Part shown: positions 789 through 22,712 of the stretch, piece by piece | How positions within the stretch are numbered: the stretch's first letter is position 1 | Layout of the letters: every line of letters begins with the position of its first letter | Source: Kiritimatiella glycovorans | GTDB lineage: Bacteria; Verrucomicrobiota; Kiritimatiellia; Kiritimatiellales; Kiritimatiellaceae | DNA length: 32,000 nt | Direction: 5' to 3' | Assembly (NCBI RefSeq): GCF_001017655.1 | Contig: NZ_CP010904.1 | Span: 270,001-302,000, forward strand | The notes under the pieces: model-generated | Seen by the model: only the letters and a program-made list of their open reading frames with translations | What the model was told of the DNA's origin: nothing | Databases searched by the model: none | Translations under genes and position numbers: made by a program

Positions 789-2365
<1,577 letters not shown>

Positions 2366-2399
2366 CGTATCCGCCTCCCGGTTCGGTCCGACGGGACGC

Positions 2400-2627
2400 T
2401 CAGCCCCGATAGCGGTAAGTGATCCGCCCCTTGGTCAGATCGTACGCCGAGACCTCCACGCGGACCTTGTCGCCGGTGGCGATCCGGATGAAATGCTTGC
2501 GCATCTTTCCCGATATGTGTGCGAGCACGACGTGACCGTTCTCCAGCTCGACCCGGTACATCGTGGCGGGAAGGACCTCTTTTACGACGCCCTCCACCTC
2601 GACTATGTCGTCTTTCTGCTTGGCCAT
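2400..2627 (-). CDS. infA: Translation initiation factor IF-1
   Basis: The internal ATG (2627) of ORF 2400..2708 gives 75 aa: [75 protein letters not shown]. This is a near-canonical IF-1 S1-fold sequence. A GGAGAA RBS lies upstream. Confidence 0.93.
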
Positions 2628-2723
2628 GCATTCTCCCTGTCTTGTCGCATGAATATGCCGCTGCGGGAACAGCGTGTCACGATAGAATAACGGGTGCTCC
2701 GCGCACAAGAGGAAACGGCGGGG

Positions 2724-2739
2724 AGGAAGGGAGAAGTCC
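2724..2739 (+). repeat. 16-bp direct repeat flanking the IS30-family element (left copy, AGGAAGGGAGAAGTCC)
   Basis: Identical 16-mer at 2724-2739 and 3948-3963. The bases immediately outside differ on both sides. Confidence 0.85.
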
Positions 2740-3947
2740 GGTAGGTTGTAAACCCAAATGCCGCATGTAGTGGTCTTGTTTCATTTATGAGATCGTTTTG
2801 AGTTCGTTCGTGAAGAGTTCGTGAGGGGTCATGAAGTCGAGGATCCGGCGCGGGTAGTTATTGATCCATAGCTCGATGTCGCGGATTTTCTGCTTGGTAA
2901 AGCGCGCGATATCCCGGCCCTTGGCCACGAACCGTCTGATCATCCTGTTGCCGTTCTCGTTCGATCCGCGTTCCCAGGATGAGTATGGGTGGGCGTAGAA
3001 GATCTGGGTTCGCTGTTGCTTCGAGAAGGAAGAGGCTTCTAAGGCTTCGAAGTCCAGGAACTCGCTGCCGTTGTCGACCGTGATGGTCTTGAAGATCTGA
3101 CGGAAGCAGCGGGAGCCATGTTCACGCTCGAGCCCTCTGAGAACTTTGAGCACGCTGGCTTGGCTCTTATCAGGCAGCTTGCGAATGATCGTGATCCGAT
3201 GTCTGCGTTCCACCAGGGTCAATAGGGCGGCATTGGACCCGCGCGTGGGGCCGGTCACCAGGTCCATCTCCCAGTGTCCGAACTCCTCGCGCGTCTCGGC
3301 TCCTTCGGGACGCTGGTCGATGCTTTTGCCTTTGGAAATCCGCTTCGCCAACCGCCGAGCGCCGCGTTTGCGCCGCTTGGCTCGCTTACGCTTCTCCCAC
3401 AGTGACTCGTTGCTGAGCCCGAAAATGACGCCTTTATCGATGTAGTTATAGATCGTCTTGGTGCACACCACCTCCTCCAGACCGGCCTGACGCATCCGAA
3501 AGGCGACTACATCGGGCGATTCCTTATGTTCCACAATGCGGCAACGGATGAATTCGGCCAGCGCATAGTTGCGGCCCAGCCTCAGACCGGGCCCCCTTGC
3601 GGTGGCGTGGTAATCATGGAGGTCCTGGCCGCGATCGCTGCTGTAGGTCCGGTATTCCCGCCACTCCGAGTCCCGGTGGGTCACCGTCCCGCGCTTGAGC
3701 TCACGCTGGATCGTACGCGGGTGACGCTCCAAGGCGGCCGCGATGTCCCGTGGGGGGATCCCCCCACGGGACATCCGCTCAATCACCATGCGCTCCACCC
3801 TCGTCAAGTGCTTGCCCTTCCTGCTATTCTGATTCTGTTCCATGCCGTCTCCTTCCTCTGTTGTCCTGTTGTAAGACCACAAAGGATAGCGAACCACGGC
3901 ATGGAACGCTCTCTCCTATACCTGCGGCATTTCACATTACACTTCTC
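2740..3947 (-). mobile_element. IS30-family insertion sequence, about 1.2 kb, single transposase ORF
   Basis: Bounded by the 16-bp direct repeats. It has imperfect terminal inverted repeats. The left end is GGTAGGTTGTAAACCCAAATGCCGCATGTAGTGG. The reverse complement of the right end is GAGAAGTGTAATGTGAAATGCCGCAGGTATAGG. They share the cores TGTAA and AAATGCCGCA, about 23 of 34 positions. The transposase ORF fills the interior. Confidence 0.8.
2785..3843 (-). CDS. IS30 family transposase (HTH plus DDE)
   Basis: The ORF is 2785..3897. The likely start is MEQNQNSRKGKHLTRVERMVIERM, with a GGAAGGAGA RBS 6 nt upstream. There is an N-terminal HTH (RTIQRELKRG). The catalytic core contains ITVDNGSEF and FYAHPYSSWERGSNEN motifs typical of IS30-type DDE transposases. 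Confidence 0.9.
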   Translation of the reverse strand: MEQNQNSRKGKHLTRVERMVIERMSRGGIPPRDIAAALERHPRTIQRELKRGTVTHRDSEWREYRTYSSDRGQDLHDYHATARGPGLRLGRNYALAEFIRCRIVEHKESPDVVAFRMRQAGLEEVVCTKTIYNYIDKGVIFGLSNESLWEKRKRAKRRKRGARRLAKRISKGKSIDQRPEGAETREEFGHWEMDLVTGPTRGSNAALLTLVERRHRITIIRKLPDKSQASVLKVLRGLEREHGSRCFRQIFKTITVDNGSEFLDFEALEASSFSKQQRTQIFYAHPYSSWERGSNENGNRMIRRFVAKGRDIARFTKQKIRDIELWINNYPRRILDFMTPHELFTNELKTIS

Positions 3948-3963
3948 AGGAAGGGAGAAGTCC
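3948..3963 (+). repeat. 16-bp direct repeat flanking the IS30-family element (right copy)
   Basis: Identical to 2724-2739. It overlaps the hairpin GAAGGG-agaagt-CCCTTC (3950-3967), which is followed by T8 (3968-3975). Confidence 0.85.
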
Positions 3964-4011
3964 CTTCTTTTTTTTGCCTCGCCGCCCCTTGGGGTTCTAT
4001 ACTGAGGCCGC

Positions 4012-4239
4012 ATGAAGTCGATCGCTACCACCATGATTCTGACGGGCGGCGTCCTGCTGGTGCTGGGTCTGCTGATGTTTTTTGCCGCGCGGCTCCCGTT
4101 CCCCTTCGGACGGCTGCCCGGCGATATCCACGTCCACGGCCGGAACACGACATTCCATTTCCCGGTGGTGACGTGTATCGTGGTCAGTGTCGTGCTGACG
4201 CTGATTCTGAATCTCCTGATGCGGATAGTAAACAGGTGA
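4012..4239 (+). CDS. Small membrane protein, DUF2905-like
   Basis: 75 aa with two hydrophobic helices flanking FPFGRLPGDIHV, the conserved central motif recalled for the DUF2905 family. A GAGG RBS lies 4 nt upstream of the ATG. Confidence 0.6.
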   Translation: MKSIATTMILTGGVLLVLGLLMFFAARLPFPFGRLPGDIHVHGRNTTFHFPVVTCIVVSVVLTLILNLLMRIVNR

Positions 4240-4439
4240 AATACTGAGGTAAACACCTGAACGGCGACCTCGCCCGCGCCTACGGCCGCGCCATGCGCCA
4301 GTGGGCCGAGTACATGGGTCATCTGCGCAAAGCCTATCCCTTCCTGTTCTCCTTCGCAGCGCGCAATAATCCGTTCCGCGAACAGCAGGACGTACGCGTG
4401 GGATGAGCCGCCCTTGCAATCGCTCACGTTCTTTGCATA

Positions 4440-7286
4440 ATGACGGGCCAAGAATGGCGGAGTGACGCTTCGTCGTTTCGGGGAGACGGACCGCAAAGGG
4501 AACGGGGGTGCGGTGTGACGTGCAGGGAACGGCAGCTCAGGGTGCAGCGCGATCTGGCGCTGGCGCTGACGCAGGAACGGGGACTCGACGAGACACTGAA
4601 ACTCTGTCTCGAAGGCGCCTTCGAGGTTTCGGGTACGCAGGCGGGGGGCGTCTACCTCTTTCAACCCGACACCGGCGAGCTGGCGATCGCCGCGCATCAG
4701 GGCCTGTCGGAAGATTTCCTGCGCACGGTACGACGCCTCGGGCCCGACGAAAAACCCGTCCGGCTCGTCCGCGAAGGCACCCCGCTCTATACCCGCTACA
4801 GCGAACTGCCCTATGAGCGCCCTCCGGAACGGGACCGCGAGGGACTCCGCAGTGTCGCGATCGTCCCGATCCTGCACGGCGACGAGGCCATCGGCTGCCT
4901 CAACGTCGCCTCCCGCGAAGCGGACCGGATCGAGGAATCCGATCGCGAGTCGCTGGAGACACTCGCCGGGGTCATGGGGCAGGTGATCGCGGCAAAACAG
5001 GCCGAAATCGCCCTTCAGGCGAGCGAAGAACGGTTCCGGAAGATCGTCGACCACCTCCCGCAGTTCGTGGCGTTTGCCGATACCGACCTCCGCTACCGCT
5101 ACGTCAACCGGACGTACGAGAAGGTGTTCGGGATGGACGCCGAAGCGATCCTGGGGCGCAGCGTGCCCGAGTTTATCGGCGAAGAGGCCTTCGAGCGGGC
5201 GCGACCGCACGTCGAGCGCGTGCTCGAGGGCGAAAAGGTTCACTACCGTGAACAGTGCTCCTGCCTTCACAACGGGTCGCGGCACATCGAAGGCGTCCTG
5301 CTGCCCGAACGCGACGAGCACGGCCGCGTCCACGGCTACTACGCCGTTCTGAACGACGTCACTCATTACGTAGAAGCGCTGGCACAGCTTGAAGCGACCT
5401 CGGCGCGGATGGACGCCGCCGTGCACGCGGGAAGGATCGGGATCTGGGAGCGCGACTTCAGGACGGGTACCGTATTCTACTCCGCCGAGTGGAAACGCCA
5501 GCTCGGATATGCGGATGACGACGTGGGCGGGGCGCTGGAGGAGTGGACCGGCCGGCTGCATCCGGATGAGGCTTCGCGCGTGCTGGAGGAACTGCAAGCG
5601 TTCATGGAGAGTGCGAACACCGAGTACGAGTTTGAATTCAGACTGCGCCACCGCGACGGATCGTACCGGTGGCTGGAGGCTCGTACGGTCATCTATCGCG
5701 AAGACGACGGAACGCCGCGGCGGATGCTGGGTACGCATGTCGACGTCACCGAGCGCAGGCAGGCCGAACGGGAGCGGGAACACCTGCTGCACGCGGTGGA
5801 GCAGGTGGCCGACATCGTCGTGGTCACCGACACCGAAGGCGCCATCCGGTTCGTGAACTCCTCGTTCGAGCGGATCACCGGGTACGGCAGGGACGAGGTC
5901 CTGGGTGAAAACCCGCGCATTCTCAAGAGCGGGGAGCAGTCGGACGATTACTACCGCGACCTCTGGGAGACGATCTCCGGCGGCCGGACCTGGCACGGTC
6001 GGTTCGTCAATCGGAAGAAGGACGGCGAGCACTACACGGAATCCGCCACCATCTCGCCCGTGTTCGATCAGAACGGGACGATCGTGAGCTATGTCGCCGT
6101 CAAGCGCGACATCACGGAACAACTCCTGCTCGAGGAGCAGTACCTGCACGCCCAGCGGCTGGAGGGGGTGGGCAAGCTCGCCGGGGGGATTGCGCACGAT
6201 TTCAACAATATCCTGCAGGTGATGATGGGCAACGCGCAGATCGCGCGCACGGAGGCCGAGGAGGGGTCCTCGCTCCAGACTTCGCTCGACGAGGTGCTCA
6301 AGGCCGGCAAGCGGGCGCGCGATCTGACCCGCGAGCTGTTGACGTTCACGCGGCGGCACGACACCGAACGCCGGCCGGTCAACATCAATGAACTCATTGC
6401 CAACATGGAGGGCATGATCAGGACCGCGCTCAGTGAACGCGTGGGCTACGAATCCCGCCTGACCGACGGCCTGCCCGCGGTCAGCGCCGATCCCGGCCAG
6501 ATCGAGCAGGCCCTGCTGAATCTGGTGACCAACGCGCGCGATGCCATGCCCGAGGGCGGGAGCTTCCGCATCGAGACCTCGACCCAGTATCTCGATGAAT
6601 GGTTCTGTACGTGGCACAGCGAAGCCTCGCCCGGAGAATACGTGCGGATCGATGTCAGCGATACGGGATGCGGGATGGACCGTGACACCTGCGAGAAGGC
6701 GTTCGACCCGTTTTTCACCACCAAGGAAGTGGGAGCGGGAACGGGCTTGGGGCTCTCCTCGGTCTACGGCATCGTGTCGCAGCACAAGGGATTCATATCC
6801 CTGTACAGTGAGCCGGGCCGGGGCGCGACCTTCCGGCTTTATCTGCCCGCGAGCGAAGAGTCGTGCGAAGCTCCCGAAGCGCCCCGCCTCGAAGGCGATC
6901 CGGTACCGGGCGGGACCGCGACCGTGCTGCTGGGCGAGGACGACCCCGGCGTGATGACCTGGCTGCGTCACATACTCGAGCGAGCGGGGTACCGCGTGAT
7001 CGCCGCCGAGGACGGGGCCGCGGCTTTGGAGCTCATCGACGCCGGCGGCGAAAAGATCGATCTGGCCGTGCTCGATGTCGTCATGCCCCGTTACGACGGA
7101 AGCGAAGTGGCCCGCCGTTTTCGCGAAAAGCATGGCGAGGAGGCCCCCGTCGTTTTTCTGAGCGGGTACAGTCGCAATTATCTCAGCGGGTTCCGCGAGC
7201 GCGACTCCGCCACGCGCATCCTGTCCAAACCCTGCTGCGAGGAAGATCTCCTGCGCGCCATGCATTCGTTGCTGGAGAAGAGGTGA
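4440..7286 (+). CDS. Hybrid sensor histidine kinase (GAF - 3x PAS - HisKA - HATPase_c - receiver)
   Basis: 948-aa ORF. It has a GAF-like N-terminal region and repeated PAS signatures (e.g. FRLRHRDGSYRWL, VAVKRDITEQ). The H-box is GGIAHDFNNIL, the N/G boxes are NLVTNARDAM and DTGCGM...GTGLGLS, and the C-terminal receiver is VLLGEDDP...LAVLDVVMP. The true start is uncertain; an in-frame GTG at 4515 is an alternative. Confidence 0.9.
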   Translation: MTGQEWRSDASSFRGDGPQRERGCGVTCRERQLRVQRDLALALTQERGLDETLKLCLEGAFEVSGTQAGGVYLFQPDTGELAIAAHQGLSEDFLRTVRRLGPDEKPVRLVREGTPLYTRYSELPYERPPERDREGLRSVAIVPILHGDEAIGCLNVASREADRIEESDRESLETLAGVMGQVIAAKQAEIALQASEERFRKIVDHLPQFVAFADTDLRYRYVNRTYEKVFGMDAEAILGRSVPEFIGEEAFERARPHVERVLEGEKVHYREQCSCLHNGSRHIEGVLLPERDEHGRVHGYYAVLNDVTHYVEALAQLEATSARMDAAVHAGRIGIWERDFRTGTVFYSAEWKRQLGYADDDVGGALEEWTGRLHPDEASRVLEELQAFMESANTEYEFEFRLRHRDGSYRWLEARTVIYREDDGTPRRMLGTHVDVTERRQAEREREHLLHAVEQVADIVVVTDTEGAIRFVNSSFERITGYGRDEVLGENPRILKSGEQSDDYYRDLWETISGGRTWHGRFVNRKKDGEHYTESATISPVFDQNGTIVSYVAVKRDITEQLLLEEQYLHAQRLEGVGKLAGGIAHDFNNILQVMMGNAQIARTEAEEGSSLQTSLDEVLKAGKRARDLTRELLTFTRRHDTERRPVNINELIANMEGMIRTALSERVGYESRLTDGLPAVSADPGQIEQALLNLVTNARDAMPEGGSFRIETSTQYLDEWFCTWHSEASPGEYVRIDVSDTGCGMDRDTCEKAFDPFFTTKEVGAGTGLGLSSVYGIVSQHKGFISLYSEPGRGATFRLYLPASEESCEAPEAPRLEGDPVPGGTATVLLGEDDPGVMTWLRHILERAGYRVIAAEDGAAALELIDAGGEKIDLAVLDVVMPRYDGSEVARRFREKHGEEAPVVFLSGYSRNYLSGFRERDSATRILSKPCCEEDLLRAMHSLLEKR

Positions 7287-8093: not shown

Positions 8094-8123
8094 ACCACCG
8101 ATTACACCGATCGCACGGATGAT
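8094..8123 (+). repeat. 9-nt periodic module (CACCGATTA CACCGATCG CACGGATGA) of the extragenic element family; intron-free paralogue of the group II intron insertion site
   Basis: Three 9-nt units read directly. The minus strand of 8094-8121 matches the exon sequence flanking the intron at 24 of 28 positions. Confidence 0.7.
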
Positions 8124-8151: not shown

Positions 8152-8236
8152 TTGTCGGTATGGCGAAGCGGCTACGGAAATGGAAAGAGATCGGAAGCAG
8201 AGTTTCTGAAACCGGCATGACTTCGGCCTTTTCGTG
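8152..8236 (+). repeat. 85-bp direct repeat, copy 1
   Basis: 82 of 85 positions identical to 11835-11919 (TTGTCGGTATGG..GGCTACGGAAATGGAAAG.GATCGGAAGCAGAGTTTCTGAAACCGGCATGACTTCGGCCTTTTCGTG). Confidence 0.9.
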
Positions 8237-8345: not shown

Positions 8346-8459
8346 CTCGGCCGCCGAGTATAGAATACGCTGACCTGACAGCCGAATTTGGGCAAAAGAT
8401 AAGCTTGAATACCATGCCCGACGTGGTTCAGTTCCAAAGTAATCAAGCGTGAGGTGACT

Positions 8460-8687
8460 ATGCCAAGCACAGCCGAGATCATACACGAAGCGGAGTCCCT
8501 GCCCGTGGAGGAACGTGCGGTCGTGGTCGACTCTCTATTGCGTTCCCTCAATCCCCCGGACCCGGAGATCGACCGGAAATGGGCGGCTGTCGCCAAACGG
8601 CGACTTGATGAACTCCGTTCAGGCCGCGTCAAGCCCGTCCCGGGAGAGGAAGTTTTCGCAGAGATCCGCCAGCGATTCGCGGTATGA
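8460..8687 (+). CDS. Type II antitoxin, putative addiction-module component (TIGR02574-like)
   Basis: 75 aa: MPSTAEIIHEAESLPVEERAVVVDSLLRSLNPPDPEIDRKWAAVAKRRLDELRSGRVKPVPGEEVFAEIRQRF. The pattern (LP.EER...L..SL....DPE.D..W..E..RR..E..SG....P.EEVF) is the one I recall for this antitoxin family. A GTGAGG RBS is present. The stop overlaps the next ATG (ATGA). Confidence 0.7.
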   Translation: MPSTAEIIHEAESLPVEERAVVVDSLLRSLNPPDPEIDRKWAAVAKRRLDELRSGRVKPVPGEEVFAEIRQRFAV

Positions 8688-8712
8688 CATTCTCTTTCCA
8701 TCCTGTAAGCAG
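8684..8712 (+). pseudogene. Remnant N-terminus of a RelE/ParE-type toxin (MTFSFHPVS...), truncated by AT-rich DNA
   Basis: It is translationally coupled to the antitoxin. M..F.FHP is the usual start of the RelE/ParE partners of this antitoxin family. Base composition drops sharply after about 8712, and the rest of the toxin fold is absent. Confidence 0.4.
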
Positions 8713-8899
8713 GGGAGGTTGTAAAATGTACTGTAGAAAAACAAGCCCTATTAGTTACTTCGTCATAGCAGCCTTATTCAGCTTATTAGTGTTTGTGTCA
8801 TTTGGAATATCATCCTGGTTATTCAGCGGTAAATGGTGTGGTGGCATGGATTGGCGGGATTTAATTACTAAGTCGGAAAGAGAAATGATATTAGAATAA
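8684..8899 (+). CDS. Chimeric small ORF: toxin remnant fused in frame to a hydrophobic single-helix peptide (an internal ATG at 8726 is an alternative start)
   Basis: 71-aa ORF. Residues 20-45 (ISYFVIAALFSLLVFVSFGISSWLF) form a predicted TM helix. The DNA is AT-rich, about 38% GC in the 60-nt line I counted. No family was recognised. Confidence 0.35.
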   Translation: MTFSFHPVSRGGCKMYCRKTSPISYFVIAALFSLLVFVSFGISSWLFSGKWCGGMDWRDLITKSEREMILE

Positions 8900-8974
8900 T
8901 GCGGATTAAGTAGGCACTGCAGTGATGAAAGATTTTATGGATCTGTATGTGATTACTTAGTCAATAGAATCATT

Positions 8975-9427
8975 ATGAATCCTGAAAATGGTGATTTTGA
9001 TGAGGATCTTCTACTGCGGTTTAAATCCTATTGTGCCACGCGAAAAGGGGAGGAAGACGAGTACAGAGCCGGTCTTTCCTATACTTTAGCGACGATGCTT
9101 CTCAAGGCCAACAAAAAGCGGTCTGAATGCAGGCGGGAACTTGATCACGTAGAATCTGCGGATTATTCTTTTTATAAATATGGGAAGCCGGCTCGGCCTC
9201 TATCCAATCGCGATGGACATCATGCAGGGGATTCTGATTGGGCGGAAGAGTGGCGGGAATACTATCGTGATCAGGAATTCCGGCGACGGAGGAATATGCG
9301 TAATGTGTCGGAGGTGAAGCGGTTCAGGGGACAGTGTATAAATGGCCGAGGGGAGGACTATGTTAGTCAGAAAAAAAGTGAATGGAATAGATATTTAAAT
9401 GAAATAATAGTGAATAGTAGAAATTAA
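8975..9427 (+). CDS. Hypothetical protein in the AT-rich cassette (150 aa, charged, no family recognised)
   Basis: Longest ORF in the low-GC stretch. It is a hydrophilic protein rich in E, R and K (MNPENGDFDEDLLLRFKSYC...). I recognised no similarity to any family. Confidence 0.5.
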   Translation: MNPENGDFDEDLLLRFKSYCATRKGEEDEYRAGLSYTLATMLLKANKKRSECRRELDHVESADYSFYKYGKPARPLSNRDGHHAGDSDWAEEWREYYRDQEFRRRRNMRNVSEVKRFRGQCINGRGEDYVSQKKSEWNRYLNEIIVNSRN

Positions 9428-9545
9428 ATAAATCAGTAGCATCCTATAGGGCCCCATATCGGGGCATAGAGCTTGTGGCGGGACAGAAGGGTCCGCCTAA
9501 TGCATTATTGGCGATTGGAAAGGATCGTTGATGTTTTTCATGTTC

Positions 9546-9828
9546 AGTTTTTGAGAAGGCGGTCGCGAATAGAAAGTCGTTCGGGGAAAAGGGCGGGGTG
9601 CGGAAGATCAGGGAAAGCGTAGAATCGAGATCGTGGGGAGAGAATGGGATTCACCATGAAGGCCATGAAGAGCATGAAGGGGTGAACACAATTCGTACTC
9701 TTACTCGTACGCGTACTCGGAGCGCCGAAGGCGCGATCCCCCTCCCCGTGTTCAAGGAACTCGAGTACGAATTATGTTCTCTCTGAATCCCGATTTCGAG
9801 TTCCCATCCGTGTCCTCGGTGTAATCCG
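9546..9828 (+). repeat. Composite extragenic element: purine-rich 6-nt periodic tract, 3 x 9-nt block, GTAC-rich palindromic core, then an inverted 9-nt module interrupted by the intron
   Basis: An AGTTTTTGAG start at 9546. ATGAAGGCC ATGAAGAGC ATGAAGGGG at 9656-9682. Perfect 11-bp arms AATTCGTACTC (9690-9700) and GAGTACGAATT (9763-9773) enclose the hairpin GCGCC-GAA-GGCGC (9722-9734). About 62 of 68 aligned positions are identical to 22604-22671. Confidence 0.75.
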
Positions 9829-10306
9829 GTGCGCCAAGCAAAGCTTGGCTGTTTCTAACTGAATGAAAGGAGTCAGTCGTGTGAATTGATCGTTGCACAT
9901 GTAGCCGACCCAGCGGTGATCGGGGGTAACCCCGGCGTCGAAGCCTGGGAAGGCGAACGCGTGAGCCGTAGCGAAAGCGAACTTGATTCAGCCTCGTTAC
10001 ACAAGCCGAGGGCGGCCAGCCTATCGGATATGATGAAGCCAGCACTTGTCGGGAAGGAACGGTCATAAGCACCGGCAAGGCCCTCCGGGGTAACAAGAGA
10101 CGGCGCGCGCAGAAAGAACAGCCAGGAACTTGGGAGGCCCGCCGTGATGTCGGGTAAGCCGACAAGCCCGTGGGGGAATCAATAACCTCGGGGGTGATCG
10201 CGTGCGGGAGTCGGAGAGGCTCGTAGTAGTGATGAAGCGGGGTAATGCCCGTGGAGCGAAGGGGTCTCGGCGGAAGACGAGCTGAGTAAGAAGCGCGGGG
10301 GACTGA

Positions 10307-11650
10307 TTGGTGAAACCTATGACAGAAGAAGCGACGGAGTACTATCGCATTGACGACAGACTCTTGCCGCCGAAACTCGCCGCGCTGAGACAGAAGCTGA
10401 GTCAGAAGGCCAAACAGGAGAAGCGGTTTCGCTTCTACAGTCTCTATGGCCACATTGGCCGGGCCGACACTCTGCTGGCGGCATGGAAACATGTACGCGC
10501 CAACGGCGGAAAAGAAGGCCCCGATGGTGTGACCATCGAGGACATCGAACAGAGTCAAGGAGGAGTCGAAGCCTTCTTGGCGGATATTGAACGCAGCCTG
10601 AAGGATCGAACCTACCGTGCTGGAAAAGTGCGGCGGGTCTACATCCAGAAGGTGAACGGGAAACTCCGTCCCTTGGGAATACCCTCGGTGCGGGATCGGG
10701 TCGTGCAGACCGCTACGGTTCTGATATTGGAACCGATCTTTGAAGCTGACTTCAAGGATTGCTCCCATGGGTTCCGGCCTGAGCGCTCGGCGCATGATGC
10801 GTTGAAGGCGATTGGACAGGAGCTCCGGCAAGGGCGGTGTGCGGTGTATGATGCGGATCTGGCCGGCTATTTCGACAGTATTCCACACGACAAGCTCATC
10901 GCTTGTGTGCAGATGCGTGTCACCGACCGGTCCGTGCTGAAGCTGATCCGAATGTGGCTGAAAGCGCCGGTAGAGGAAACGGAGAAAGGCAAACCGCCGA
11001 CCGTGAAGCGCAACGACAAGGGCACGCCGCAAGGCGGGGTCATTTCGCCGCTTCTGGCCAACATCTATCTGCACTGGTTCGATGCGGTGTTTTACCGCAA
11101 AGACGGACCGGCACGGTGGGCGAAGGCCAAACTGGTGAGGTACGCCGATGACTTCGTGGTCCTCGCCCGGTATATCGGTCCGCAACTCGAAGCGTTCATC
11201 GAAGCCAAGATAGAAGGGTGGCTCGGGCTGAAGATCAACCGGGACAAGACCCGGATACTCGATGCTCGGGAACCGGGGCAGACGCTGGACTTTCTCGGAT
11301 ATAGCTTCCGCTATGACCGGGACCTCGGCGGACGCCCGTGCCGGTACTGGAACCTGACACCGTCGCGGAAAGCGCTCCAACGGGAACGTGATCGGCTTCG
11401 GGAGATGACCGGACCGGAACAATGCTTCAAACCTCTGCCGACGGTGATCGACGAACTCAACATGCAAATGCGAGGATGGGCAAACTACTTCTCGCTGGGT
11501 TATCCGCGTGTGGCATTCCGCCACGTCAATGGATACGTGCGACAGCGTCTCACGCGACATGCGAAACGACGCAGTCAGCGCGGCTACTGGCCCCCTGAAG
11601 GTATGAGCTACTACGCGCATTTCAAGAACATGGGACTGATCTACCTGTGA
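10307..11650 (+). CDS. Group II intron reverse transcriptase/maturase (no endonuclease domain evident)
   Basis: RT motifs [54 protein letters not shown] and the YADD box ([11 protein letters not shown]). The C-terminal X/maturase region has RGWANYF. The ORF opens at TTG 10307; ATG 10319 (MTEEATEYY) is the likelier start. Confidence 0.93.
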
Positions 11651-11676
11651 AACCATCCAACAAATGCCTTCCGCGA

Positions 11677-11709
11677 GAGCCGGATGCGGGAAATCCGCAT
11701 GTCCGGTTC
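11677..11709 (+). ncRNA. Group II intron domain V (catalytic hairpin)
   Basis: GAGCCGGAUGCGGGAAAUCCGCAUGUCCGGUUC. It has the AGC triad, a 2-nt bulge on the 3' strand, a GAAA-type loop and a canonical length of 33-34 nt. Confidence 0.8.
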
Positions 11710-11834
11710 GACGAGGGGGAGGGCAGTCCGCGGTCATTGGCTATACGCCTCTCATCCCGTGGCTCCCTCTCTACTCTACTGGTCGAAAACACAAGAAAGG
11801 TCTTACTTACAGGGGTCCGATCCCGTTTAGTTTA

Positions 11835-11919
11835 TTGTCGGTATGGGGAGGCGGCTACGGAAATGGAAAGGGATCGGAAGCAGAGTTTCTGAAACCGGCA
11901 TGACTTCGGCCTTTTCGTG
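11835..11919 (+). repeat. 85-bp direct repeat, copy 2
   Basis: 82 of 85 positions identical to 8152-8236. Confidence 0.9.
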
Positions 11920-12265: not shown

Positions 12266-12479
12266 TCACGTCCCCGCAGGTCGACTCTGCCCACTCCAGA
12301 GCTTCAGATTCCCGGACGCGGTCTGCACCCATGGTGCGGTAGCCCTCGTACAAGTCTTTCTCCAGCACATGCGGCCGCACGAGATCCTCCACGAAGTGGC
12401 TTATCTTGCGCGGGCCAACGACCCGCCGCAGGCCATCGTACACCTCCTCGTCAATCGTAAGAGTCAGCTTTTTCCGCAT
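12249..12479 (-). CDS. Cognate antitoxin (MazE-like partner, probable RHH-type N-terminus)
   Basis: 76 aa. The N-terminus MRKKLTLTIDEEVYDGLRR is typical of small DNA-binding antitoxins, and the C-terminus is acidic. It sits immediately upstream of the MazF-family gene and overlaps it. An AGAGG RBS is present. Confidence 0.7.
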   Translation of the reverse strand: MRKKLTLTIDEEVYDGLRRVVGPRKISHFVEDLVRPHVLEKDLYEGYRTMGADRVRESEALEWAESTCGDVSDEES

Positions 12480-12694: not shown

Positions 12695-12767
<73 letters not shown>

Positions 12768-12815: not shown

Positions 12816-13060
12816 GAGTTTTTTGAGTGGGAGGGTGTTTTGAGTGGGAGGGCTGAAACCTGAAACCTGAGTAAGAAGTTAGAGTCAGAATCAGAGTCAG
12901 AGTCAGAATCAGAGTCAGAGTAAGAGTAAGAGGGAGTGAGAAGCCTGAGTTTTTGAGTGGGAGGGCTGAGACCTGAAACCTGAGTAAGAAGTTAGAGTCA
13001 GAATCAGAATCAGAGTCAGAGTAAGAGGGAGTGAGAAGTCTGAGTTTTTGAGTGGAGAAT
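12816..13060 (+). repeat. Tandem repeat block: units of about 95-112 bp (GAGTTTTTGAGTGGGAGGGCTGA.ACCTGAAACCTGAGTAAGAAGTTAG...), each containing a variable hexamer array (AGTCAG/AATCAG/AGTAAG)
   Basis: Unit starts were read at about 12816 (short unit), 12836, 12947 and 13042 (truncated). Unit 1 has 8 hexamers before AGGGAG and unit 2 has 5. The plus strand is strongly purine-rich. Confidence 0.85.
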
Positions 13061-22533: not shown

Positions 22534-22712
22534 GTGGAATCAGAGTAAGTGGGAGTGGGAATCGCTGTCGCTATCGAAATCGGGCTTCACCACAGAGAAC
22601 ATGATTCGTACGCGTACTCGGAGCGCAGGAGGCGCGATCCCACTCCCCCGATTCAAGGAACTCGAGTACGAGTACCGCTTCGCTGAGTACGAGCACGAGT
22701 ACGAGTACGATA
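22531..22712 (+). repeat. Composite extragenic element, second full copy (purine-rich hexamer tract, TTCAC module, palindromic core, GTACGA-type hexamer array)
   Basis: TGAGTGGAATCAGAGTAAGTGGGAGTGGG starts at the pilC stop. CTTCACCACAGAGAACAT lies at 22585-22602. The core 22604-22671 aligns to 9691-9771, and hexamers GAGTAC/GAGCAC/GAGTAC run to about 22710. Confidence 0.75.

Follow-up and report, generated by a model that had tools for sequence, protein, structure and literature searches.

A probable case of toxin decay in a ParE-type toxin-antitoxin module of Kiritimatiella glycovorans: an orphan antitoxin followed by ORFan DNA of foreign composition

When an intact antitoxin gene is followed, in the place of its toxin, by DNA of foreign composition whose first reading frame still overlaps the antitoxin gene, is one looking at the remains of a toxin-antitoxin (TA) module, or at a new pair of antitoxin and effector? 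The question is raised by a locus of Kiritimatiella glycovorans at positions 8460-9427 of the stretch analysed here (contig NZ_CP010904.1, positions 270,001 to 302,000; 32,000 nucleotides, hereafter the window), whose mean G+C content (GC) is 62%. An initial annotation of this DNA had described a TIGR02574-like antitoxin gene coupled to a two-gene, low-GC cassette, and had offered two readings: either the toxin was destroyed by foreign DNA, leaving an orphan antitoxin, or the cassette supplies a new effector. Our analysis favours the first. Namely, we consider the locus to be a degraded ParE-type TA module, consisting of an orphan antitoxin and ORFan passenger DNA of foreign composition, with a probability of roughly 0.8: approximately 35 nucleotides (nt) of the toxin gene are left, its remainder is missing from the window, and relatives have independently undergone comparable decay.

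The antitoxin gene (8460-8687, plus strand) is intact and encodes a full-length protein of 75 amino acids (aa). Its product matches the PF09720 profile (Unstab_antitox) with E=7.6e-19 and 67.9 bits against a cutoff of 23.3, over profile positions 1-54 of 54, and TIGR02574 ("putative addiction module component") with 41.5 bits against a curated cutoff of 31.9. Judged by these scores, which exceed the curated cutoffs in both cases, the protein belongs to the PF09720/TIGR02574 family, in agreement with the original assignment. A conserved leader of approximately 40 nt precedes the gene on the same strand (8416-8459) and forms the left limit of the TA-derived segment: blastn homology to several related loci (L040 and L044-L049) begins at 8416-8418. 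No sigma-70-like promoter was found on the plus strand of this leader. At the other end of the gene, the stop codon overlaps the following start codon as ATGA (8684-8687), as had been described. The arrangement of the family, in which the antitoxin gene lies directly upstream of the toxin gene and overlaps its start, is therefore recognisable here, except that the downstream gene is a stub only.

What should have followed the antitoxin can be read from its relatives. A scan of one genome per species gave 22 loci with related antitoxins, and exact-protein look-ups of seven close homologues gave 30 more (52 in all). Intact relatives carry, directly behind the antitoxin gene and joined to it by the same ATGA overlap, a gene for a toxin of 97-103 aa; the toxins of the closest relatives (102-103 aa) start with MTFSFHPEAEEEF, and the N-terminus in intact relatives follows the pattern M-x-F-x-F-H-P-E-A-E. 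A profile of ten such partner toxins (alignment A1) matches ParE2 in the PDB (8c26_A) with E=2.2e-6, while the precomputed Pfam assignment is ParE_toxin (PF05016), marked there as "weak", and a single partner-toxin sequence lies below E=1 in Pfam and NCBIfam. On the strength of these profile matches, the usual partner is a ParE-like toxin. The intact toxin core in alignment A1 includes, among its invariant positions, R57, R63-F64-P65, H86-R87 and W92.

In the window, this toxin gene is represented by a 5' stub of about 12 codons, or some 35 nt (8684-8718, plus strand), whose ATG overlaps the antitoxin stop. The stub peptide begins with MTFSFHP, which is the start of the usual ParE-like partner, so that the resemblance to a RelE/ParE N-terminus pointed out in the initial annotation is borne out, and it then departs from the family at codon 8. 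Namely, nucleotide alignments to the relatives reveal a 1-nt insertion (a T, at approximately 8705/8706) after toxin codon 7, and it is because of this insertion that the protein leaves the family at the next codon; the DNA itself is still recognisable as toxin (AAGCAG..GAGG) up to about codon 12, i.e. up to position 8718. Beyond this point nothing of the toxin could be found. The homology of the window to the 52 related loci is restricted to 8416-8718, tblastn with three intact toxins matched only residues 1-7 in the whole 32 kb, and the 3' part of the toxin, sought beyond the low-GC block and again beyond the group II intron described below, is absent from the window. Accordingly, no open reading frame (ORF) here encodes an intact toxin of roughly 100 residues that includes the conserved core, nor is there a second ParE-like gene anywhere in the window. 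Since the homology ends at 8718 and tblastn recovers residues 1-7 only, approximately 90 toxin codons have been deleted or replaced, and not merely interrupted.

The place of the toxin body is filled by a low-GC block of 721 bp (8719-9439), purine-rich on the plus strand. Its GC content is 41.2%, as compared with 62.4 +/- 3.3% for other windows of 721 nt (z = -6.5), and its edges, which are sharp at a resolution of 40 nt, lie 7 nt before the start codon of the first ORF in the block and 12 nt after the stop codon of the last. The collapse in composition reported earlier is in this sense both real and abrupt, with the qualification that homology to the toxin extends to about codon 12. None of the 52 related loci is homologous to the block, phage and plasmid records yielded no match to it by blastn or tblastn, and a search against Rfam was empty both at the gathering threshold and at E<=1, a chance snoRNA-like match aside.

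Is this locus exceptional among its relatives? In the close subclade, defined here by an antitoxin at least 87% identical in protein, we found at least seven different toxin lesions that retain a stub among approximately 12 sampled lineages. The toxin is cut at codon ~9 in L001 and at codon ~22 in L003; it carries a frameshift at codon ~20 in L002 and L033-L039 (on 10 contigs) and an internal deletion in L040; in L044-L046 it breaks off at codon 66 and runs on as a fusion with other sequence, and in L050 and L052 it is cut at codon 13, with a DUF4143 gene following on the opposite strand; finally, the window itself has its stub of about 12 codons, followed by the low-GC block. Intact toxins are found in the same subclade behind P0003, P0004, P0034, L004 and L051. 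What is more, one and the same antitoxin protein, P0033, occurs with an intact toxin in L051 and without one in L050 and L052. The ATGA overlap and the first toxin codons persist in each of the seven decayed forms, and the DNA that comes after the stub differs in every one of them.

This comparison bears directly on the translational coupling that the initial annotation had described as kept. Because the toxin's first codons are kept in all seven decayed forms, with unrelated DNA downstream, the supposedly kept coupling is a by-product of the retained stub. In other words, the ATGA overlap is not evidence of selection on a new downstream gene, and is the normal residue of toxin loss from the 3' side. 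Orphan antitoxins as remnants of degraded TA systems are, for that matter, a documented and common class (PMC7354431). As a side observation, the closest intact relative, L023 (ena:ERZ24794671 NODE_74508, positions 1374-4922), lies amid a dense TA array, made up of a MazF pair, the PF09720 and ParE genes, a second PF09720 gene with a 39-aa stub, another MazF and HicB; this second PF09720 gene, too, would seem to be an orphan whose partner was truncated.

We turn now to the reading frames inside the block, where matters are less simple. The first of them, ORF57 (8726-8899, plus strand; 57 aa), encodes a peptide with one strongly hydrophobic helix, for which the Kyte-Doolittle maximum is 2.33 at residues ~8-31. 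A GGAGG motif at 8713-8717 lies 8 nt before its ATG at 8726, and its period-3 signal is weak (p=0.03). Read from the toxin ATG, the same frame gives ORF71 (8684-8899, plus strand), which is the 71-aa chimeric peptide with a hydrophobic helix that had been predicted. Both this chimera and the ATGA overlap exist only because the toxin start codon survived and by chance shares its frame with the foreign ORF. A single in-frame TAA (8897-8899, plus strand) divides ORF57/71 from a stop-free stretch (8900-9424), which contains the charged ORFan ORF150 (8975-9427, plus strand; 150 aa), again where it had been predicted. The stop-free run amounts to 175 codons, which is unexpected (P~0.004) when compared with composition-matched Markov-1 shuffles. 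The period-3 power of ORF150 is 3.77, as against 0.75 +/- 0.43 in shuffles, a value reached by 0 of 2000 of them; its GC at codon positions 1, 2 and 3 is 0.53, 0.40 and 0.42, and its sense strand is purine-rich. ORF150 thus looks like coding sequence, and it has no Shine-Dalgarno motif upstream.

ORF71 and ORF150 lie in one frame, separated by the single TAA and a stop-free linker of 25 codons, and the chance of such a shared frame, estimated from local base composition, is about 0.035. The most economical anatomy may therefore be that ORF57 and ORF150 are parts of one foreign gene of approximately 233 codons, broken by a nonsense codon; its product of about 233 aa would consist of an N-terminal transmembrane helix and a charged helical remainder. 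For the description of the block as a two-ORF cassette this means that both ORFs are indeed present, and that they may represent one frame broken by a TAA instead of two genes.

Neither part of this frame has recognisable relatives. A word-indexed search of 5.8 billion clusters returned nothing for ORF150 or ORF71/57, and an exhaustive phmmer (HMMER) scan of 1.84 billion representatives gave no credible homologue of ORF150. The lone phmmer match, P0001, was rejected, being a eukaryote-like repeat protein whose E-value sums four copies of a short DWAEE motif; its best single alignment, at 32.7 bits, is not significant for 1.84 billion representatives. Scans of viral and metagenome contigs likewise yielded nothing credible for the ORFs of the block, a 17-residue contig match (L053) being rejected for crossing ORF boundaries. 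ORF57, ORF71, ORF150 and the merged 233-aa frame are without a match in Pfam, PHROGs, PADLOC and NCBIfam, and in PADLOC-DB, in particular, ORF57, ORF150 and the merged frame have none at E<=1. No profile of small membrane toxin families matches the 57-aa, 71-aa or merged sequences. For ORF150, there is no sequence match in the PDB, and Foldseek against the PDB gave nothing below E=2; its AlphaFold2 (AF2) model, computed without an alignment, is all-helical with a predicted local distance difference test score (pLDDT) of 50.

These searches also bear on the checks proposed in the initial annotation. Absence of both ORFs from other genomes, together with a lack of transcription, had been named there as a sign of junk DNA, and conservation of either ORF was not seen, as no library searched contained a homologue. 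Measured against what the annotation itself had asked for, this speaks against a conserved effector. The other deflating outcome named there, a clear homology of the 150-aa ORF to a phage or insertion sequence (IS) fragment, did not materialise either in phage, plasmid, viral or profile searches, and the proposed profile searches and structure prediction on the small and 150-aa ORFs ended with no family, no fold match and a pLDDT of 50.

Taken together, the course of events that we propose is the following. A type II TA module, with a PF09720/TIGR02574 antitoxin and a ParE-like toxin, would be in the process of decay, its antitoxin still intact. The toxin would have been cut to its first ~12 codons and frameshifted by one inserted T, and the 721-bp low-GC block would have taken the place of the remaining ~90 toxin codons through illegitimate recombination or deletion-replacement. 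The block would have brought along one frame (8726-9427), the real or recently real coding sequence of a protein restricted to its lineage, in which a membrane helix at the N-terminus precedes a helical, charged remainder of about 175 residues, and this frame would later have been split by the TAA into the ORFs of 57 and 150 aa. The orphan antitoxin might still serve as a repressor, or neutralise related ParE toxins. That said, no evidence links it functionally to the foreign ORFs.

How did the block arrive? Terminal inverted repeats are missing at 8719/9439, and so is a transposase; neither feature, then, points to an IS or a miniature inverted-repeat transposable element (MITE) as the source of the block. 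An integron cassette was rejected: a regular-expression scan for attC cores (RYYYAAC/GTTRRRY, 40-130 nt apart) on both strands of the whole window returned 0 candidates. The edges of the block do carry an imperfect direct repeat of 9 nt, CATCCTGTA (8699-8707) and CATCCTATA (9440-9448), which is the sole candidate for a target-site duplication. We estimate a chance of about 0.1 for it, and past the copy at 9440 the toxin gene is not taken up again. Given this 1-in-10 chance and the failure of the toxin to resume, the repeat may at most represent microhomology used in illegitimate recombination. Arrival by illegitimate recombination or deletion-replacement is then what we infer, precisely because a transposase, inverted ends, an attC site and a convincing target duplication are all lacking.

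Several points weigh against this account and should be noted together. First, the features sought at the edges of the block point to no particular mechanism of insertion. Second, ORF150 is statistically coding-like, which means that the block is not simply junk, and missing homologues do not exclude a function. Third, with a good Shine-Dalgarno motif before ORF57 and the toxin ATG in frame with it, the DNA behind the antitoxin gene could give rise to a membrane peptide. Fourth, the strong purifying selection on the antitoxin, discussed below, may predate the loss of the toxin. Finally, a mis-assembly at the two junctions is conceivable, although unlikely.

Among the alternative explanations, the one that survives best is in fact compatible with decay of the module. 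Namely, the orphan antitoxin could be kept for a role of its own, independent of the block, be it as a transcriptional regulator or in anti-addiction against incoming ParE toxins, a role that has been discussed for orphan antitoxins in general (PMC7354431). At least 120 protein clusters share 85-95% identity with the antitoxin, whose subclade counts 1492 homologues at E<=1e-20. Against L001-L004, the ratio of nonsynonymous to synonymous substitution rates (dN/dS) is 0.02-0.05, with dS saturated (>1.4). The antitoxin is, in other words, under strong constraint, and this signal is not datable relative to the loss of the toxin. An intact frame and such low values of dN/dS at saturated dS, across lineages with separate toxin losses, speak for a role of this kind, as does the decayed state with a 28-aa stub and an intact antitoxin, which occurs on 10 contigs from several samples. 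On the other hand, the selection signal may predate each toxin loss, and the window offers no second ParE-like gene for the antitoxin to act upon. We therefore treat retention for such a role as a tentative possibility, somewhat unlikely as things stand.

Considerably less probable, in our view, is that the block is non-coding debris and that both of its ORFs are open by chance. The lack of homologues in approximately 15 billion proteins, the missing Shine-Dalgarno motif of ORF150, the low confidence of its predicted structure (pLDDT 50) and the marginal period-3 signal of ORF57 (p=0.03) would all agree with debris. However, a stop-free run of 175 codons is not expected at 41% GC (P~0.004), none of the 2000 shuffles reaches the periodicity of ORF150, the excess of GC at the first over the second codon position and the purine-rich sense strand are typical of genes, and the edges of the block tightly bracket the frame.

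It is very unlikely that the low-GC piece comes from another organism and was joined to this genome by an error of assembly or binning. Such a chimera would account for the abrupt switch in composition at both edges and for the absence of the block from every public collection searched; what is more, exact-protein look-ups of the 75-aa antitoxin and of a 226-aa hydrolase returned no record, so that there is no independent assembly for comparison. Still, the block is internal, and two repeats described below, the 85-nt repeat and the one at 9684-9800/22574-22671, tie both of its flanks to one genome. A usual chimeric join, moreover, has one junction and does not take the form of a 0.7-kb insert, and the left junction falls within a stub that has itself decayed through substitutions and a 1-nt insertion, as would suit an event of some age.

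Among the known types of toxin are small membrane peptides. This, together with the retained ATGA overlap, the toxin ATG in frame with the hydrophobic ORF, the GGAGG that lies 8 nt ahead of the inner start codon at 8726, the strong transmembrane helix and the coding-like character of ORF150, is what could be said for a new antitoxin-effector pair, in which a membrane-anchored effector (57/71-aa plus 150-aa, or ~233-aa) in the toxin slot would be translationally coupled, by termination-reinitiation, to the antitoxin controlling it. We consider this second reading of the initial annotation the least probable of all, since neither ORF has a homologue through which co-occurrence with any antitoxin could be demonstrated, no match exists in PADLOC, Pfam, PHROGs or NCBIfam, decayed loci without such a cassette, whose toxin slot holds unrelated DNA, regularly retain both stub and overlap, the partner of the PF09720 antitoxin is ParE-like in every intact relative with nothing to suggest binding of a membrane peptide, and the frame is broken by a TAA.

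A comparison with known systems leads back to decay of the TA module. In intact modules of PF09720/TIGR02574 antitoxin and ParE-like toxin (L023, L041, L047, L051 and L004), the antitoxin protein has 89-95% identity to that of the window, and the ATGA overlap, the first seven toxin codons (MTFSFHP) and the leader of ~40 nt are shared as well; unlike them, the window lacks ~90 toxin codons, and hence does not hold a functional two-gene system. Another comparison is with degraded loci of type II TA systems that have kept an orphan antitoxin, covered by the surveys reviewed in section 4.2 of PMC7354431, in which an intact antitoxin likewise stands beside a truncated or absent toxin with adjoining remnants, in a locus situated amid other TA modules and mobile DNA. 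What sets the present locus apart from them is that a compositionally foreign ORFan block replaces the toxin body, with the toxin start fused to it in frame. Integron gene cassettes resemble the block in being compact and promoterless-looking, in their foreign composition, ORFan frame and tight bounds; in contrast to them, the window has no attC-like core pair, and no integrase was seen nearby. As for the hydrophobic peptide, the type I TA toxins Hok, TisB and Fst are small hydrophobic membrane toxins, which the short ORF57 peptide resembles in its one strongly hydrophobic helix. It differs from them in having no family match, no evident antisense RNA partner and no conservation anywhere. To our knowledge, toxins of the Hok/TisB/Fst type are not neutralised by PF09720 proteins.

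The surroundings of the locus are rich in repeats and include further small genes. Between the block and a group II intron lies intergenic repeat DNA of host type (9440-9828), in which GC returns to 0.5-0.68. It contains a dispersed hairpin-type repeat at 9684-9800 with a second copy at 22574-22671; the match to 22606-22671 spans 66 nt at 91% identity, and the internal inverted repeat of the element lies at 9684-9700/9763-9779. The copy at 9684-9800 stops approximately 30 nt upstream of the 5' end of the intron. An inverted repeat of 22 nt is also present at 8100-8121 and 9805-9826 (GATTACACCGATCGCACGGATG and CATCCGTGTCCTCGGTGTAATC, 86% complementary), its second arm ending 3 nt before the presumed 5' end of the intron (GTGCG at 9829). 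The intron itself (~9829-11780) matches Rfam RF02005 and RF00029 and carries an ORF with reverse-transcriptase and maturase domains; a repeat element of the host may have been the site of its homing. Finally, a direct repeat of 85 nt, 96% identical between its copies (8152-8236 and 11835-11919), encloses the antitoxin, the low-GC block and the intron. Apart from these two copies, no other was found in the window, the fetched loci or the metagenome contigs, and its predicted RNA folding is unremarkable (z = 0.08). Two interpretations are conceivable, namely a host repeat of dispersed type, or the termini of a segment that was duplicated or inserted.

Further along, a MazF gene lies on the minus strand, with a small ORF upstream of it (12267-12479, minus strand; 70 aa, starting with MRKKLTLTIDEEVYDGL). 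The sole Pfam match of this ORF is to DUF6364, over 13 residues with E=0.1, and it is presumably the MazF antitoxin. A tRNA-Lys(CTT) gene follows at 12695-12767. Beside it, at 12820-13060, there are short repeats, tandem and nested, such as AGAGTCAGAATCAGAGTCAGAG and TTTTTGAGTGGGAGGG, with units of 113 nt at 95% identity; they are of low complexity and intergenic. The second TA pair, the intron and the tRNA listed in the initial annotation are thus all in place, as the MazF gene, the group II intron and tRNA-Lys. The defence hotspot suggested on their account finds no backing: matches in PADLOC number zero, and what lies nearby is only TA modules and the intron.

What does this locus mean for the family? 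If the foreign ORF were toxic and controlled by the antitoxin, one would be dealing with effector swapping behind a fixed antitoxin, although no evidence points there. Decay of the module, which we prefer, would make the locus a further example of how type II TA systems degrade, with the toxin lost first and the antitoxin persisting, and ATGA overlaps and chimeric ORFs at such sites would be by-products of this decay. The toxin slot, for its part, takes up unrelated DNA in different lineages. Finally, an antitoxin subclade of more than 120 clusters at 85-95% identity, in which ParE is being lost repeatedly and independently, would offer a natural series for the question of whether orphan antitoxins are retained for anti-addiction.

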